From the NCBI GenBank assembly GCA_039091855.1, contig JAWCLA010000007.1, positions 1,093-15,404 on the forward strand: a stretch of DNA of 14,312 bases, written 5' to 3'. Positions 1,366 through 5,708 of this stretch are shown in pieces. The stretch is from Candidatus Aenigmatarchaeota archaeon. Its GTDB lineage: Archaea; Aenigmatarchaeota; Aenigmatarchaeia; QMZP01. The notes below the pieces were generated by a model that was not told where the DNA came from, made no database searches, and saw nothing but the letters and a program-made list of their open reading frames with translations. Position 1 is the first letter of the stretch. Every line of letters starts with the position of its first letter. Position numbers and translations under genes: made by a program.

Positions 1366-1391
1366 CAAAACCCCTTATGAGCCCGGAGGGA

Positions 1392-1480
1392 TTTTCGCAA
1401 AACAATCTTTTATTTGAATCGATTTCATAGCTCAGGTAAAGTTTTTGGCATCCAAAGGCTTTTTTGAAAAAAGCCTTTGT
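1392..1480 (-). other. tRNA intron 3, T-loop position 59/60 (89 nt)
   Basis: Strict BHB: central helix UUCG/CGAA, bulges AA|A and AA|U, inner helix CAAA/UUUG, outer helix is the T-stem GAGGG/CCCUC. Confidence 0.9.
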
Positions 1481-1502
1481 TTCGAACCCTCGACACCCGG
1501 GT

Positions 1503-1553
1503 ATGTTCTGTCACCGGGCATAAAAGCCCTCAGCACGCTTTTAAATATGACAT
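1503..1553 (-). other. tRNA intron 2, canonical position 37/38 (51 nt)
   Basis: Bulges UA|A and AU|A, inner helix UGUCA/UGACA, central helix CUUU/GAAC (3 of 4 pairs, C32:C mismatch). The outer helix is the anticodon stem. Confidence 0.8.
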
Positions 1554-1560
1554 TAAAAGC

Positions 1561-1607
1561 TTCACCCGGAGACTGGATGGATGCTTTTCCATTCCAATCT
1601 TGCTTGA
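1561..1607 (-). other. tRNA intron 1, position 30/31 (47 nt)
   Basis: BHB: central helix CACC/GGUG, bulges GG|U and AA|G, outer helix GAG/CUU. Contains an internal hairpin AGAUUGG...CCAGUCU. Confidence 0.85.
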
Positions 1608-1702
1608 CCGGTGCTCTACCAGGCTGAGCTACGGGCCCGATTAGTAATATTAAGGTAAAGGTGGGTTAAAATGCTTTTATTCCCAAAAACGTCTAATTTT
1701 CT

Positions 1703-2584
1703 ATGGGCAAGATTGATGCCAAAACAATGGGAAAAATCCTCTCCTTCCAGAAAAACGAGATCACGGAGCACATAATATATTCAAGGCTTTCGCGTTCTGC
1801 AAAGGATCCTGAAAACAAGAAGCTCCTTGAAGGGATATCCAGAGACGAGCTTGCTCACTACAATTTTTGGAAGGGCATAACGGGAATGGAGGCAAAACCT
1901 TCAAAAATGAAGATATGGAAATACCTTCTGATTGCAAAGATTTTCGGCCTCACGTTTGGAATGAAGCTTATGGAGGGAGGCGAGGAGGGGGCGCAGGAAG
2001 CCTACGGAAAAATATCAAAGTCTGTCCCAAAGGCTATCAAAATCCTAAGGGACGAGGACAGGCACGAGCAGGAGCTCTTGGGAATGATAAGCGAGGAAAG
2101 GCTCAAGTATGTGGGCTCGATAGTTCTCGGCCTGAATGACGCGCTTGTCGAGCTGACGGGAACTCTTGCCGGCTTGACTTTCGCTTTCCAGAACACGCAG
2201 ATAATCTCTCTTGCAGGTCTCATAACAGGGATTGCGGCATCATTTTCAATGGGCGCGTCAGAGTATCTTTCAACAAAATCTGAGGAAACAGCAGAACTAA
2301 GGAGCCCGAAAAAGGCTTCTGCCTACACGACAATCGCATACATTCTGACCGTGCTGTTCCTGATATCTCCCTTCTTCCTCCTCTCGAACCACTTTCTCGC
2401 CCTTGCATTAACAATAGTAAACGCCCTGATAGTTATTTTCATATTCACCTTCTACATATCTGTCGCTAGAAGCCTTCCGTTCAGAAGAAGGTTCGCCGAG
2501 ATGGCGGCGATAAGCTTGGGAATAGCATCCATCACATTCCTCATAGGAATGCTCATAAGGGTTTTCCTTGGGATTGAGGTTTAG
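1703..2584 (+). CDS. Rubrerythrin/ferritin-like domain fused to VIT1/CCC1 transporter (MbfA-like iron transport protein)
   Basis: N-terminal di-iron ExxH motifs (DELAH, DEDRH). C-terminal VIT1 signatures SIVLGLNDALVE and SFSMGASEYLS, followed by TM helices. Confidence 0.9.
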   Translation: MGKIDAKTMGKILSFQKNEITEHIIYSRLSRSAKDPENKKLLEGISRDELAHYNFWKGITGMEAKPSKMKIWKYLLIAKIFGLTFGMKLMEGGEEGAQEAYGKISKSVPKAIKILRDEDRHEQELLGMISEERLKYVGSIVLGLNDALVELTGTLAGLTFAFQNTQIISLAGLITGIAASFSMGASEYLSTKSEETAELRSPKKASAYTTIAYILTVLFLISPFFLLSNHFLALALTIVNALIVIFIFTFYISVARSLPFRRRFAEMAAISLGIASITFLIGMLIRVFLGIEV

Positions 2585-2753
2585 TCCGTGAGAAATAATC
2601 CTCAATACCGTCCATCAAATCCTCTTTTGATACGTCCGTTTTCATCAGGATGTTGTAAACCCTGTTGAGGGCGGTTTTGTAGCCTTTGGCAAAATCTATA
2701 CTGTTTTGCCCAGCTTCACTTTCCAGAATCTCTGCAATTGTTTTTCTTTTCAT
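2553..2753 (-). CDS. Small hypothetical protein (66 aa)
   Basis: ATG lies 10 nt after the ileS stop on the same strand, and the sequence has a protein-like helical composition. Fills an otherwise empty gap and overlaps the VIT1 3' end by 32 bp. Confidence 0.55.
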   Translation of the reverse strand: MKRKTIAEILESEAGQNSIDFAKGYKTALNRVYNILMKTDVSKEDLMDGIEDYFSRTKPQSQGKPL

Positions 2754-2762
2754 AAACCTTCG

Positions 2763-5708
2763 CTATGCCTTGACGTCAAACCAAATCCTAACTCTTGAGC
2801 CTTCGAATTCCAGAACTCCCTTCTCCCTTTTTAGCTTTTCAAACCTCAACGAATCGGCACCAACGCCTTCAACAATTTCTTCCTTTGATGAATGAAGCTT
2901 TTCCTGCGTTTTAGGGTCAGTTTCCAAAAACAAAGATATTCTTTGAGTTACCTTTAAACCATCTTCCTTTCTCAGCATCTGAACCTTTCGCACAAGCTCC
3001 CTTACCAGAGCCTCGTTCATAAGCACTTCACCAATAACGAATTCCCCATACTCAAACTTCCTGCCGTTCCCAAGCTTTTGGGAAACCCTTACGTTCCTGA
3101 CGTTTCCCATTTTCTGTATGATTTGGGAAAGCCTTTTCACAGCCTCCTCTGTTTTTTTGTCCTTTGGCAAAACATGAATTTCCAACACAGGCCACTTAAG
3201 CTTTATGCCTGCCTCCTGCCTCGCGAAATTCACAGCCTCTATAAGAGAATCCACTATCTTCATCTGCTCCTCAAGCTTGGTGTCAATCATTTTCCTTTCA
3301 GGTTTTGGCCATTTTGAAAGTTGGACTGACTCCTCTTTGAAAAGCCTTGTATGTATCCTTTCAGAAATGAATGGCGTGATTGGAGCCATAAGCCTTACCA
3401 ACCTGTAGAGGACATATCTGCAGGTTATCTGTGCAGGCTTCTTGTCACTCCCTTCATACCAGGGAGATACCCTGTCCCTTATCAACTTTATGTACCACCT
3501 GGAAAAATCGTTCAGAATGAAATCAGCAAGCGAGCGTGAGGCAGAGTTCAGCCTGAAATTCTCTATGTCTTCGGTGACTTTTTCTATAAGACAGTTCACC
3601 CTTGAGACTATCCACCTGTCCTCGAGAGAAAGGTTTTCGGGCAGTTCGCCGTCCTGCTGGCAATAGGTTTCAGTGAAAACGTAAGTGTTCCATAGCACGT
3701 TCAAGACCCTGTGAAGCTCTTTCGCGTTTGACATGTTGAATTTCTGGGTGTCCCAGGGGGCAGTGTCATAACAATAGTAAAGCCTCAAAAGGTCTGAACC
3801 GAGAAGGTTTCTCGCTTCCTTTGCGTCAACCACGTTACCGAGCGACTTGCTCATCTTCTCTCCCCTTTCGTCGAGAGTCCAGCCATTCAGGCAGACTGTC
3901 TCGTAAGGTGCCCTGTCAAAGACAGAGAAGCCGCACATCATAAGGCTGTAAAACCATCCCCTTATCTGGTCCTGGCTCTCGTCTACCAAGTCAACGGGCC
4001 AAAGTTTTTTGAAAAGCTCCCTGTTCCTGAACGGGTATCCTATGGAAGCCCACGGCGATATTCCGGAATCAAACCAGACATCCATTATGTCTTTAACTCT
4101 TTCCATCTTTCCACCGCAAACACATGGGATTGAAATTTTGTCAACACTGTCCTTGTGCAGGTCTGAAACCTTTTTTCCTGAAGCTTTCTCAAGCTCCCTT
4201 TTTGAGCCTATCACTGTTTTTTTCCCGCACTTTTTGCACACCCAAATTGGTATGGGTATCCCCCAATACCTCTGCCTCGTTATTGCCCAGTCAGGCGCTT
4301 CGGCAATAAGGTCCGAGAACCTCTCCCTCCCGAATTCAGGAAGCCACCTGACCTTTTTGTTCTCCCTGAGTATTTTCTCCCTTATCGGGTCAAGCCTCAG
4401 ATACCACTGATTGCTCATTCTATATATCAGGGGAGACTTGCACCTCCAGCAGAGAGGGTAGGAGTGGACTATTTTTTCCGAAACAAGGAGTTTTCCTCTC
4501 CTTTCCAGTTCTTCTATTATCATCGGGTCAGCCCTTTTCACAAAAATCCCCGCAAACCTCCCAGCCTCTTTTGTTAGCTTTCCTGAGTCGTCAACAGGGG
4601 AGGGCTCTGGAAGCCCGTAATGCCTTCCAAGCTTGTTGTCAACATCCCCGTGTCCGGGCGCTATGTGAACAAGCCCTGAGCCTGTTTCCATGTCAACTAC
4701 GTGCCCGAACTCATCTCCTGACTCAACCACCCTTTTTGTCAACGTCTTTGAGGCAACCCTCTTCTTCATTATCGGGATTGACAGTATAACCCTGTGCGCC
4801 TTTGGATTACTTTTCAGCTCCTCCTGAAGCGGGACGTCAAGGGCGGGCTCATATCTCAACCCTTCCAGTTTTTTCCCAGGAAATTTTTCAATAACGGAGT
4901 AACCGATTTCAAGCCTGTGAAGAATTTCCAGTCTTTTCTCTGCAAGAATTAGTATCTCTCCACTTCCTGTCCTGACCCTGACATAGCTTTCTTCAGGGTG
5001 TGCGCATATCGCAACGTTGGCAGGAAGCGTCCACGGGGTCGTTGTCCAGACAAGGAGGTATTCCTTGTCGGAATTTTTGACAGGGAACTTTATGTAGATT
5101 GAAGGGTCTTCTATGTTCTTGTAAGAGTCAGTGACCTCATACCCTGAAAGGACGGTCTCGCAGTGAGGGCACCAGAAGCTCGGTCTCGTTCCTTCTGACA
5201 AAAGAGACTTCTCATACATCCTTTTCACTGTCCACCATCCACTTTCAAGGTAGTAATCCTTGTATGTAAGGTACGGCTCAACCCACCCTCTCCAAGCTCC
5301 CAGTTCCTTGTACAGCTCCATCCATAGATGGAGGTTCTGTTCCGCAAGGCTCTTGCACTCCTTTATGAAGTTCTCTATCCCTATCTTCTCCTCTATGTCC
5401 TTCTTTGACTTTATGCCGAGTTTCTTTTCCACTGCATTCTCTATTGGCAAACCTGAACAGTCAAAGCCGGGCTGGAACCAGACAGAAAATCCCTGCATGT
5501 ACTTGAACTTTCCCCATATGTCCTTGAATGTGGTTGTTTTTATGTGACCCACGTGTGGTATTCCATTAACATAAGGCGGGCCGTCCAGCAGGTAGAATTT
5601 CTTTCCCCCTCTCCGCGAGAAGTCAACAATCCTTTCTGGAATCTTGTTTCTCTTCCAGTAATCTTGGACTTCCTTTTCTATTTTCTTATGATCATATGGC
5701 TCGTTCAT
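2763..5708 (-). CDS. ileS: Isoleucyl-tRNA synthetase
   Basis: 981 aa with DGPPY, HIGH-like PHVGH, editing motifs WTTTPWTLPAN and GSGLVHIAPGHG, DWAITRQRYWG, DQIRGWF and KMSKSLGN. Confidence 0.95.
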   Translation of the reverse strand: MNEPYDHKKIEKEVQDYWKRNKIPERIVDFSRRGGKKFYLLDGPPYVNGIPHVGHIKTTTFKDIWGKFKYMQGFSVWFQPGFDCSGLPIENAVEKKLGIKSKKDIEEKIGIENFIKECKSLAEQNLHLWMELYKELGAWRGWVEPYLTYKDYYLESGWWTVKRMYEKSLLSEGTRPSFWCPHCETVLSGYEVTDSYKNIEDPSIYIKFPVKNSDKEYLLVWTTTPWTLPANVAICAHPEESYVRVRTGSGEILILAEKRLEILHRLEIGYSVIEKFPGKKLEGLRYEPALDVPLQEELKSNPKAHRVILSIPIMKKRVASKTLTKRVVESGDEFGHVVDMETGSGLVHIAPGHGDVDNKLGRHYGLPEPSPVDDSGKLTKEAGRFAGIFVKRADPMIIEELERRGKLLVSEKIVHSYPLCWRCKSPLIYRMSNQWYLRLDPIREKILRENKKVRWLPEFGRERFSDLIAEAPDWAITRQRYWGIPIPIWVCKKCGKKTVIGSKRELEKASGKKVSDLHKDSVDKISIPCVCGGKMERVKDIMDVWFDSGISPWASIGYPFRNRELFKKLWPVDLVDESQDQIRGWFYSLMMCGFSVFDRAPYETVCLNGWTLDERGEKMSKSLGNVVDAKEARNLLGSDLLRLYYCYDTAPWDTQKFNMSNAKELHRVLNVLWNTYVFTETYCQQDGELPENLSLEDRWIVSRVNCLIEKVTEDIENFRLNSASRSLADFILNDFSRWYIKLIRDRVSPWYEGSDKKPAQITCRYVLYRLVRLMAPITPFISERIHTRLFKEESVQLSKWPKPERKMIDTKLEEQMKIVDSLIEAVNFARQEAGIKLKWPVLEIHVLPKDKKTEEAVKRLSQIIQKMGNVRNVRVSQKLGNGRKFEYGEFVIGEVLMNEALVRELVRKVQMLRKEDGLKVTQRISLFLETDPKTQEKLHSSKEEIVEGVGADSLRFEKLKREKGVLEFEGSRVRIWFDVKA

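Follow-up and report, generated by a model that had tools for sequence, protein, structure and literature searches.

A tRNA-Lys(UUU) gene broken into four exons by three introns lies on the minus strand of the 14,312-nucleotide stretch of DNA analysed here (hereafter the window), and it is very probably functional, its three introns being excised and its exons joined to supply what is, in this assembly, the sole tRNA-Lys(UUU). The host genome (G000) belongs to the Aenigmatarchaeota (DPANN), measures 689 kb and is 84% complete. Three introns at these sites are of a kind already known from Thermoproteales; what is new is a five-intron copy of the same gene in one relative, together with a conserved block in intron 2 that is complementary to the anticodon loop.

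Exon and intron organisation of the locus

The first-pass annotation had placed the exons and introns without giving a strand; the gene is read from 1638 down to 1378 (Table 1), and both the coordinates and the proposed 7-nt anticodon micro-exon were borne out, since the exons, joined by a script from their coordinates, are called tRNA-Lys(ttt) by ARAGORN. Removal of 47, 51 and 89 nt at sites 30/31, 37/38 and 59/60 indeed leaves a 74-nt cloverleaf, such that intron (187 nt in total) exceeds exon (74 nt).

Table 1. Features of the tRNA-Lys(UUU) locus, in window coordinates
Feature	Position	Strand	Basis
Whole tRNA-Lys(UUU) gene, 4 exons and 3 introns	1378..1638	-	ARAGORN tRNA-Lys(ttt) on coordinate-joined exons, 74 nt
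Exon 1, 31 nt, positions 1-30: acceptor 5' strand, D arm, anticodon-stem 27-30	1608..1638	-	
Intron 1, 47 nt, site 30/31, relaxed BHB (hBH type)	1561..1607	-	
Exon 2, 7-nt micro-exon GCTTTTA: G31, C32, U33, anticodon UUU, A37 (positions 31-37)	1554..1560	-	
Intron 2, 51 nt, canonical 37/38 site, relaxed BHB	1503..1553	-	
Block TTAAAAGC within intron 2, complement of anticodon-loop G31-A38	1537..1544	-	
K-turn-like (box D'/C'-like) element in intron 2: CTGA, GGGC/GCCC hairpin, GGTGA	1511..1533	-	direct reading
Exon 3, 22 nt, positions 38-59: anticodon-stem 3' strand, variable loop, T-stem 5' strand, T loop to A59	1481..1502	-	
Intron 3, 89 nt, site 59/60 in T loop, strict hBHBh'	1392..1480	-	
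Hairpin repeat at 5' end of intron 3, common to T-loop introns of other tRNA genes	1453..1479	-	
Exon 4, 14 nt: position 60, T-stem 3' strand, acceptor 3' strand, discriminator A73	1378..1391	-	

The spliced product (64.9% G+C) forms acceptor, D, anticodon and T stems of 7, 4, 5 and 5 bp, in which G2-U71 is the sole non-Watson–Crick pair; the anticodon loop has 7 nt with U33 and the T loop reads TTCGAAT. The minimum free energy (MFE) structure of this product in ViennaRNA is the cloverleaf, at -34.3 kcal/mol. Exon 4 carries no encoded CCA, and the T runs that we read directly downstream of it (1370-1367 and 1365-1363) may serve as the terminator of the gene.

A chance origin of the match is excluded by comparison with the reversed genome, which was used as the null for spliced aligner scores: with an independent Lys(UUU) template, taken from the related genome G005, the locus reaches 84 of 148 (maximum 34 on the reversed genome), and with its own template it reaches 121 (33 on the reversed genome). 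The same search for another tRNA-Lys(UUU) returned no second locus in the assembly, the next best being a Lys(CUU) at 62 vs 121. The expectation that standard scanners would overlook the gene was also confirmed: in its unspliced form it was not detected by ARAGORN (run on the window, on the locus in intron mode and on the genome), nor by Rfam at the gathering threshold, and no match to RF00005 appeared even at E<=10.

In four DNA runs, contigs match the stretch at every base and add a single T, following 1441, although these runs come from one study that may include the assembly sample, and so are not independent support. The runs are labeled as hot springs metagenome. Other contigs of the same runs have exon 1 in common with the locus and diverge from it exactly at 1608|1607, the junction of exon 1 with intron 1.

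Splicing motifs and enzymes

Bulge–helix–bulge (BHB) geometry is found precisely where the three junctions must fall to give the mature sequence, cleavage being expected inside the bulges. The first-pass annotation had each intron bounded by a BHB; this holds in the strict sense for intron 3, whereas introns 1 and 2 present relaxed, non-canonical motifs. At intron 3, the central helix (H) is complete (4/4, T54-G57 with CGAA) and is flanked by h (the T stem) and h' of 5 bp each, with bulges AA|A and AA|T; of the 2208 candidates with H=4 in the region, 52 are full motifs, and this one is placed second. At intron 1, H is likewise 4/4 (C25-C28 with GGTG near the 3' end of the intron), with two 3-nt bulges (GG|T and AA|G) and an h of 4 bp (positions 21-24 with 32-35), and it is counted as relaxed because its h' has 1 bp only. 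Intron 2 is so counted because of an imperfect H (3/4, with a terminal C32.C mismatch), flanked by h of 5 bp and h' of 6 bp, with bulges TA|A and AT|A; imposing a strict 4-bp register there would shift the cuts by one nucleotide at either end, with a loop of 9 nt as the result.

The motifs of introns 1 and 2 make use of shared nucleotides: positions 27-28 belong both to H of intron 1 and to the anticodon stem, and positions 32-35 both to h of intron 1 and to H of intron 2, while h of intron 2 is the anticodon stem, which is complete only after intron 1 has been removed. Because of this overlap, introns 1 and 2 would have to leave successively, with refolding in between. Counting against splicing, the MFE structure predicted for the precursor at 37°C contains none of the three H helices (pair probabilities <=0.27) and has the micro-exon paired with the intron 2 block instead; as folding at 37°C of the precursor and of partly spliced forms yields no BHB helices, no order of splicing is drawn from it, and the hot springs labels of the runs make parameters at this temperature a poor guide.

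The suggestion that the host has an EndA splicing endonuclease of relaxed specificity is supported by the genome, in which classification of the EndA genes identifies one enzyme of epsilon2 type and a second of alpha type. The former (contig C19, 129-1352) is a three-unit single chain of 408 aa, and is a full-length homologue of chain 4FZ2_A (E 1.5e-97, residues 16-408 of the query on 18-387 of 395). The stretches YxDWR, HS(R/K)HVLHV and AHSV(K/R)K are conserved in this alignment, and a lysine-bearing insert occupies the ARMAN-specific loop position; we take these conserved stretches to hold the catalytic Tyr-His-Lys. Structure 4FZ2 is the broad-specificity epsilon2 EndA of ARMAN-2, as given in PMC12397907. 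The alpha-type EndA (198 aa) and the ligase RtcB are also encoded. Across the order, the epsilon type is present in 38 of the 40 genomes searched; it was not found in the remaining two, G012 and G005. The sample offers one clear contrast, G005, where epsilon2 was not found and the tRNA genes are normal, nearly all of them being detectable (45 over the cut-off).

From these elements we infer the following path. The gene would be transcribed as a precursor of ~261 nt, from which an archaeal splicing endonuclease would excise the three introns at their BHB-like structures and RtcB would ligate the four exons, the 7-nt anticodon exon included. The 59/60 intron, sitting on an otherwise normal T arm, could be cut at any time. 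The relaxed motifs would most likely be processed by the encoded epsilon2-type EndA.

Orthologous loci, intron 2 and competing readings

Within the same order, we identified 26 orthologous Lys(UUU) loci that have the same exons and carry 1 to 5 introns each. The intron in the anticodon loop (37/38) is found in 26/26, an intron at 30/31 with H 4/4 in 15/26, and one at 59/60 with H>=3 and h of 5 in 11/26. A tRNA-Lys(UUU) copy with five introns occurs in relative G011 and four-intron copies occur in G032 and G036, the exons of relatives being as short as 6 to 8 nt. The same 7-nt micro-exon recurs in six orthologues (G003, G006, G001, G007, G038 and G032), at a distance of 49-53 nt from exon 3. 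For analysis of stem pairing, 22 of the 26 loci (those with ARAGORN-accepted products) were used, leaving out G012 and G027 (ambiguous ARAGORN call), G031 (no call) and G035 (because the aligner had mis-assembled its 3' end); 460 of 462 stem cells are paired in these spliced products, and compensatory double changes affect 7 of 21 stem pairs, some of which span different exons.

The block in intron 2 admits a further interpretation, namely that it acts as a box C'/D'-like (K-turn) guide carried by the intron, targeting C32 for 2'-O-methylation either ahead of excision or afterwards. This would supplement the splicing of a functional gene rather than exclude it, and is modeled on the pre-tRNA-Trp intron of Euryarchaeota. 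The block pairs with G31-A38, a Watson–Crick complement of 8 nt or longer arising in 1 of 500 shuffles, and its core TAAAAGC is kept in 26/26 orthologues, including those without intron 1; it is present in G005 also, where it is separate from the BHB. In the relatives' Lys(CUU) genes, the introns have the corresponding AAGAGCC or GGAGCC in its place. Under the K-turn and N+5 rules applied here, C32 is the predicted target. The layout in G000 runs from the block through a 3-nt spacer, CTGA and a GC hairpin to GUGA; this hairpin is kept structurally in the orthologues with differing sequences. This layout recurs in G005 in the canonical introns of Trp, Met and Leu(CAA), where C34 pairs with the nucleotide five upstream of the box; PMC7994747 describes C34 as a known C/D-guided site in those tRNAs. 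Fibrillarin is encoded in the host; of 41 genomes from the order, 37 encode Nop5, with none found in G000, an absence that at 84% completeness is counted neither way. Against a guide, the box retains its GA ending in 10/26 orthologues, the K-turn consensus is complete in both halves in 9/26, there is a single box pair with a guide of 8 bp only, and no Rfam C/D family matches at the locus. The same rule, moreover, would select U33 as the target in Arg(UCG) of G005, which is unlikely, and among the 13 canonical introns examined in G000 the complement occurs in that of Lys(UUU) only. We regard a role in guiding methylation as rather unlikely. Intron 2 was rejected as a member of the box C/D guide RNAs on the single box pair, the short complement, the poorly kept GA and the Rfam result.

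Intron 2 also contains a second GGGCTTTTA, which offers another choice of exon 2, with introns of 80 and 18 nt in place of the first two. The aligner does not separate the two parses, as both score 121 and yield an identical 74-nt product. The BHB motifs do: with the alternative exon, H is 2/4 at the first junction, and at the second it is 3/4 with an h' of 0. In the orthologues, the stretch in question is a hairpin of variable sequence that does not resemble an anticodon loop, whereas the micro-exon of Table 1 holds its distance from exon 3 in the six genomes named above. The second copy was thus ruled out as exon 2 by motifs and orthologues only, and we judge this parse very improbable.

The host's remaining tRNA genes have a bearing on whether the locus is alive. 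No tRNA in the G000 genome lies above the Rfam cut-off and ARAGORN makes 4 calls only; by rebuilding, we recovered 20 tRNA genes, of which 0/20 are without introns and 17 have an intron at 59/60. Automatic refinement of junctions by BHB score performed well for T-loop introns and for most anticodon-loop introns but overfitted those of the D arm (whose products came out at 65-72 nt, with the D arm broken, and in one case at 93 nt), such that D-arm junctions and the corresponding intron lengths are approximate; 2 of 22 candidate regions (C11, Met-like, and C1:28170) gave no ARAGORN-valid product, and the call at C12:4477 is inconsistent (GTT anticodon vs Ser(gga)). Heterologous templates misplaced some junctions. 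Comparison of 17 T-loop introns, all against all, revealed that intron 3 matches two tRNA-Pro introns at 59/60, the one on contig C36 with 97.5% identity across 40 nt and the one on C37 with 86% across 50 nt, and has a 15-nt identical core in common with the T-loop intron of tRNA-Arg(UCG) on C10. Alike in sequence and inserted at the same site of tRNA genes of differing identity, these introns constitute a paralogous family; copies of the intron 3 hairpin are also found in G001 and G004.

Such a repeat could have invaded a tRNA gene that is dead and unspliced, the working Lys(UUU) lying in an unassembled part of the genome; that intron 3 carries a hairpin repeated elsewhere in the genome, and that the assembly is 84% complete, would both suit this account. 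Yet the exons show no damage at any base and give a full cloverleaf, the insertions fall at junctions with BHB geometry, and the same exon structure persists with compensatory changes in relatives. Since the 20 rebuilt tRNA genes are all interrupted in like manner, the account would need all of them to be dead, and we consider it highly unlikely.

Least probable of all is a chimeric contig assembled from pieces of different tRNA genes: exon 1 and the intron 3 hairpin are repeated in the community and could mislead assemblers, but one contig of run X1 crosses 1300-1720 and contigs of runs X2, X3 and X4 span overlapping portions, all with 0 differing letters, and the order of the parts recurs in orthologues from other genomes.

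Relation to known systems and wider meaning

A close precedent for this probably functional, multiply interrupted tRNA-Lys(UUU) gene is found in Thermoproteales, whose tRNA genes contain up to three BHB introns (Sugahara 2008; Fujishima 2010; reviewed in PMC4033280 and PMC4090602), at non-canonical sites that include 30/31, 53/54 and 59/60, with intron transposition and a broad-specificity EndA (PMC4033280, PMC4090602). Multiple BHB introns, non-canonical sites, related introns across tRNA genes and the association with a broad-specificity EndA are features of both systems. They differ in that the present host belongs to DPANN Aenigmatarchaeota and has an epsilon2-like enzyme in contrast to the (alpha-beta)2 heterotetramer of Thermoproteales. 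They differ also in extent: none of the host's rebuilt genes is intron-less, as against the extreme of "more than half" disrupted given in the review, and the five introns of the G011 copy compare with a maximum there stated as three.

With ARMAN-2 and other Micrarchaeota, the system has in common a DPANN host, a three-unit EndA with the loop-site insert, and relaxed, non-canonical BHB introns. PMC5829648 gives the epsilon2 type as known only from ARMAN-1/-2 and Mancarchaeum; unlike in ARMAN-2, it occurs here beside an alpha-type EndA, and throughout nearly all searched genomes of an Aenigmatarchaeota order. The split tRNA-Lys(CUU) of Nanoarchaeum equitans and Staphylothermus (PMC4090602) belongs to the same tRNA family and is broken at the same 30/31 site, but is made from separate genes joined in trans, whereas here the break is a cis intron of 47 nt in the UUU isoacceptor. 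The archaeal pre-tRNA-Trp intron is a box C/D guide (D'Orval 2001; Singh 2004; both as described in PMC7994747), and resembles intron 2 in occupying the canonical site and in placing a complement of its own anticodon loop beside box-like elements; intron 2 differs in its one box pair, 8-bp complement, predicted target (C32 vs C34/U39) and a box consensus kept in a minority of orthologues. In the limited set of literature that we searched, there was no description of tRNA introns in Aenigmarchaeota/Aenigmatarchaeota or of any archaeal tRNA with an intron count above three.

Taken jointly, the observations permit a broader reading that we offer tentatively, as possible rather than favored. This Aenigmatarchaeota order may possess the most intron-ridden tRNA system known, in which the 59/60 family has spread to at least 17 tRNA genes and relatives reach five introns and exons of 6-8 nt, above the published maximum of three introns; this state may track the epsilon2-type EndA, reported only from Micrarchaeota in the sources available, and the intron 2 block may act as a guide or chaperone that is released before the BHB forms. 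If true, release of the block would couple modification or folding of the tRNA to ordered splicing.

With standard tools, the genome seems almost free of tRNAs and would fail quality standards that count them, and the missed tRNAs suggest false decoding gaps, including loss of the only reader of AAA codons. For a single tRNA, the clade provides a natural gradation that runs from one intron to five. Together with the contrast between epsilon2-bearing genomes and G005, this gradation makes the spread of introns between tRNA genes testable, and likewise the substrate range of the endonuclease, down to exons of 6-7 nt and to mutually exclusive BHBs.

The predicted spliced product and its orthologues

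Judged from its sequence, the locus has every appearance of a genuine three-intron tRNA-Lys(UUU) gene, a reading we regard as highly probable. The gene lies on the minus strand and runs from 1638 to 1378; the first-pass annotation had drawn its exon/intron boundaries correctly, and the joined pieces give a complete Lys cloverleaf. ARAGORN calls the 74-nt product tRNA-Lys with anticodon TTT (64.9% G+C, all stem positions paired, G2-U71 the sole wobble pair), and the cloverleaf is also its minimum-energy fold in ViennaRNA. The same annotation had predicted that standard scanners would miss the gene, and the unspliced DNA indeed yielded no tRNA from ARAGORN (window, and locus in intron mode) or from Rfam (gathering cut-off, and E<=10 over 1300–1720).

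We wrote a spliced aligner for this analysis (match 2, mismatch −3, gap −5, intron −9, introns up to 400 nt; both strands, whole genome). With the gene's own product as template, the locus scores 121 and the best place elsewhere 62; the latter is a tRNA-Lys(CUU) on contig C1, so that the suggested check for another tRNA-Lys(UUU) found none. The best score on the reversed genome was 33 (3946 local maxima, mean 14.6, sd 5.3). Because a test against the gene's own product is circular, it was repeated with the Lys(UUU) sequence of G005, a relative of the same order, which scored 84/148 at the locus versus 34 on the reversed genome.

Searching 40 relatives at the DNA level, and adding further regions and the spliced aligner, we obtained 26 Lys(UUU) loci. 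The anticodon-loop intron is present in all 26. The 30/31 intron, with a central helix (H) of 4/4 pairs, occurs in 15 (the host and 14 others) and is absent from nine; G016 and G018 have an insertion at 30/31, badly placed by the aligner, and are not among the 15. A 59/60 intron with at least three H pairs and a flanking helix (h) of five was found at 11/26 loci, with a T-loop insertion of uncertain junctions in six more. Intron number ranges from one in G005 through four in G032 and G036 (D-loop junctions poorly placed) to five in G011, whose exons shrink to 8 and 6 nt and whose product is called Lys(ttt). We kept the 22 products that ARAGORN calls Lys(ttt), leaving out G012 and G027 (ambiguous), G031 (no call) and G035 (dropped by hand). 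Among these, 460/462 stem cells are paired and 7 of 21 stem pairs show compensatory double changes, including 7-66, 27-43, 28-42, 29-41 and three T-stem pairs, the two sides of which come from different exons.

The sequencing runs containing this DNA are labeled hot springs metagenome and belong to a single study. Exon 1 is common to other genes in their contigs, with divergence exactly at 1608/1607, the boundary with intron 1, and one of these genes runs straight on into the anticodon loop. Contigs of two runs (X1 and X2) have one additional T after window position 1441, within intron 3, a homopolymer length difference from the assembly.

Coordinates of the gene, its intron 3 repeat, splicing enzymes and related features (C, contig; G, genome; L, single locus cut from a genome)
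Feature	Location	Strand	Details
tRNA-Lys(UUU) segments	window 1378–1638	−	31/47/7/51/22/89/14 nt, sum 261 nt; odd pieces are exons, joined by coordinates to 74 nt
Anticodon-complementary block, intron 2	window 1544–1537	−	TTAAAAGC
Hairpin repeat at intron 3 start	window 1453–1479	−	repeat; stem G/C-swapped between copies
Copies of intron 3 hairpin in host genome (G000)	C36:27104–27178; C37:23735–23792; C33:21703–21760; C1:28233–28288; C10:5097–5155		
Isoleucyl-tRNA synthetase	window 2763–5708	−	
Epsilon2-type three-unit EndA	C19:129–1352 (L002)		408 aa; residues 16–408 aligned with PDB 4FZ2, E 1.5e-97
Second EndA, alpha-type	C12:5287–5883 (L001 1204–1800)		198 aa; best matches 5x89, 1a79
Fibrillarin	C37:9000–12400 (L164; locus 2356–3111)		
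G011 Lys(UUU) introns	G011:C5 (L017, about 1414–1645)	− (of locus)	D loop 15 nt; 30/31 30 nt; 38/39 46 nt; 53/54 31 nt; 59/60 36 nt; central helix 4/4 in each

Splice motifs and probable stepwise removal

Each junction was scored with the other introns removed, the bulge-helix-bulge (BHB) geometry being two 3-nt bulges flanking a 4-bp H; the cut falls after the second bulge nucleotide. The proposal of a BHB at every intron stands in strict form for intron 3, but intron 1 is relaxed and intron 2 has an H of only 3/4. The intron 3 motif (59/60) is a strict hBHBh', in which T54-G57 pair with intron CGAA (H 4/4), the 5-bp T stem serves as h, h' is also 5 bp and the bulges are AA/A and AA/T; in a blind scan of the region, 2208 site pairs had a 4-bp H and 52 of these were full motifs, of which this one ranked second. 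At intron 1 (30/31), C25-C28 pair with GGTG (H 4/4, bulges GG/T and AA/G) and h comprises 4 bp (positions 21–24 with 32–35), the single pair of h' making the motif relaxed. At intron 2 (37/38), h' is 6 bp long and h is provided by the anticodon stem; within H, C32 is opposite C, and a strict 4-bp register would produce a 9-nt loop. Taking a second GGGCTTTTA within intron 2 as the exon gives a parse of equal score but without BHB support, in a hairpin that is variable in relatives, and was rejected.

Introns 1 and 2 draw on the same nucleotides (27–28, 32–35) for their helices, making the two motifs mutually exclusive, from which we infer that these introns must be excised stepwise. The precursor fold predicted at 37 C speaks against a simple model: it forms no H helix (probabilities <=0.27), and the anticodon-bearing micro-exon pairs instead with a block inside intron 2.

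Host tRNA genes and splicing enzymes

The host assembly comprises 689 kb in 38 contigs and is 84% complete; the window corresponds to C36:1093–15404 in it. Rfam RF00005 gives nothing over cut-off across the whole 689 kb (top match 26.1 bits) and ARAGORN finds four tRNA genes; RF00005 matches in the 40 relatives range from 0 to 75, with 9 to 14 in same-genus genomes and 45 over cut-off in G005. Using 48 G005 tRNAs as templates, and peaks of at least 0.29 as candidate regions (null normalized maxima <=0.256, 8 templates), ARAGORN-valid products were rebuilt at 20/22 regions; Gly(UCC) on C19 had an initial score of only 0.23 and, once re-windowed, is supported by ARAGORN and BHB. All 20 rebuilt genes carry introns: a single one in three genes, two in twelve and three in four (Lys UUU, Lys CUU, Ser GCU, Ser CGA), the remaining gene having no settled count; D-arm junctions are approximate. 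In 17/20 there is an intron at 59/60 that uses the T stem as h (H 4/4 in 14, 3/4 in 3).

Over 40 nt, intron 3 shares 97.5% identity with the intron at 59/60 in one tRNA-Pro; with another tRNA-Pro the figure is 86% over 50 nt, and a 15-nt core is common to intron 3 and tRNA-Arg(UCG). This likeness across tRNA genes is the pattern named intron transposition in Thermoproteales in two reviews (PMC4033280, PMC4090602). The hairpin copies on C33 and C1 lie at places without a rebuilt tRNA gene.

The annotation had anticipated a relaxed-specificity EndA splicing endonuclease, and by homology the host would have one: its genome encodes an epsilon2-type three-unit protein, aligned with the apo ARMAN-2 epsilon2 endonuclease structure (as PMC12397907 describes it), and a second, alpha-type EndA. 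The AHSxxK motif reads AHSIRARM in the alpha-type protein versus AHSVKK in the epsilon-type. RtcB is also encoded. Epsilon-type EndA was found in 38/40 relatives searched, and not in G012 (80% complete) or G005; the latter, the one relative with normal tRNA genes (45 detectable), has an alpha-type match only, a single contrast among kin and not a statistical test. The epsilon2 form has been reported only from ARMAN and Mancarchaeum, according to PMC5829648. The host alpha-type gene sits directly downstream of two multi-intron tRNA genes (C12:4477–4664 and tRNA-Phe, 5141–5285). The isoleucyl-tRNA synthetase of the window has Candidatus Aenigmatarchaeota MAGs as its nearest named records (72, 65, 59% identity); after DPANN archaea its best matches are Bacillota, Atribacterota and similar bacteria (32–35% identity), which hints at a bacterial-type enzyme.

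The intron 2 block and comparison with known systems

The intron 2 block is complementary to G31-A38, and a complement as long, outside the last 8 nt, arose in only 1/500 shuffles. Its core is retained in 26/26 orthologues, and Lys(CUU) genes of relatives have a matching block (AAGAGCC or GGAGCC) that fits the C34 anticodon. After the host block come GTG, CTGA, a GGGC/GCCC hairpin and GGTGA, and we take the CTGA–hairpin–GGTGA arrangement to fit a K-turn. It is possible, if rather doubtful, that the block is a box-type, intron-borne guide directed at C32. The G005 Trp, Met and Leu(CAA) introns share the layout, and there the fifth nucleotide before the box pairs with C34, the known C/D-guided site in these tRNAs (PMC7994747); the same N+5 rule gives C32 in Lys(UUU), but U33 in G005 Arg(UCG). 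Against a guide, too, intron 2 has a single box pair, the box GA is retained in only 10/26 orthologues (both halves in 9/26), and Nop5 was not found in the host genome, though present in 37/41 genomes of the order. The canonical introns of G005 Trp, Met, Leu(CAA), Arg(UCG) and Lys(UUU), and window 1503–1553 (minus strand), each combine a complement of their own anticodon loop with an NNGA box, a GC hairpin and RTGA. The host fibrillarin has no adjoining Nop5 gene, and the first 1365 nt of L164, the locus cut around it, hold no ORF of at least 100 aa.

In the reviews, 30/31, 37/38 and 59/60 are all listed intron positions and the stated Thermoproteales maximum is three introns (PMC4033280, PMC4090602), which the five-intron G011 gene exceeds; the split tRNA-Lys(CUU) of Nanoarchaeum and Staphylothermus is broken at 30/31 (PMC4090602). 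PMC5829648 already describes increased disruption of tRNA genes in DPANN lineages, along with incomplete sets of tRNAs. The literature searched contained no paper on Aenigmatarchaeota tRNA introns and nothing on more than three introns in one archaeal tRNA. A three-intron tRNA-Lys(UUU) gene is of a type already known. The wider picture exceeds published cases: one genome with its tRNA genes totally disrupted, an intron family spreading at 59/60, a relative with five introns, an epsilon2-type EndA across an Aenigmatarchaeota order and an anticodon-complementary intron block.
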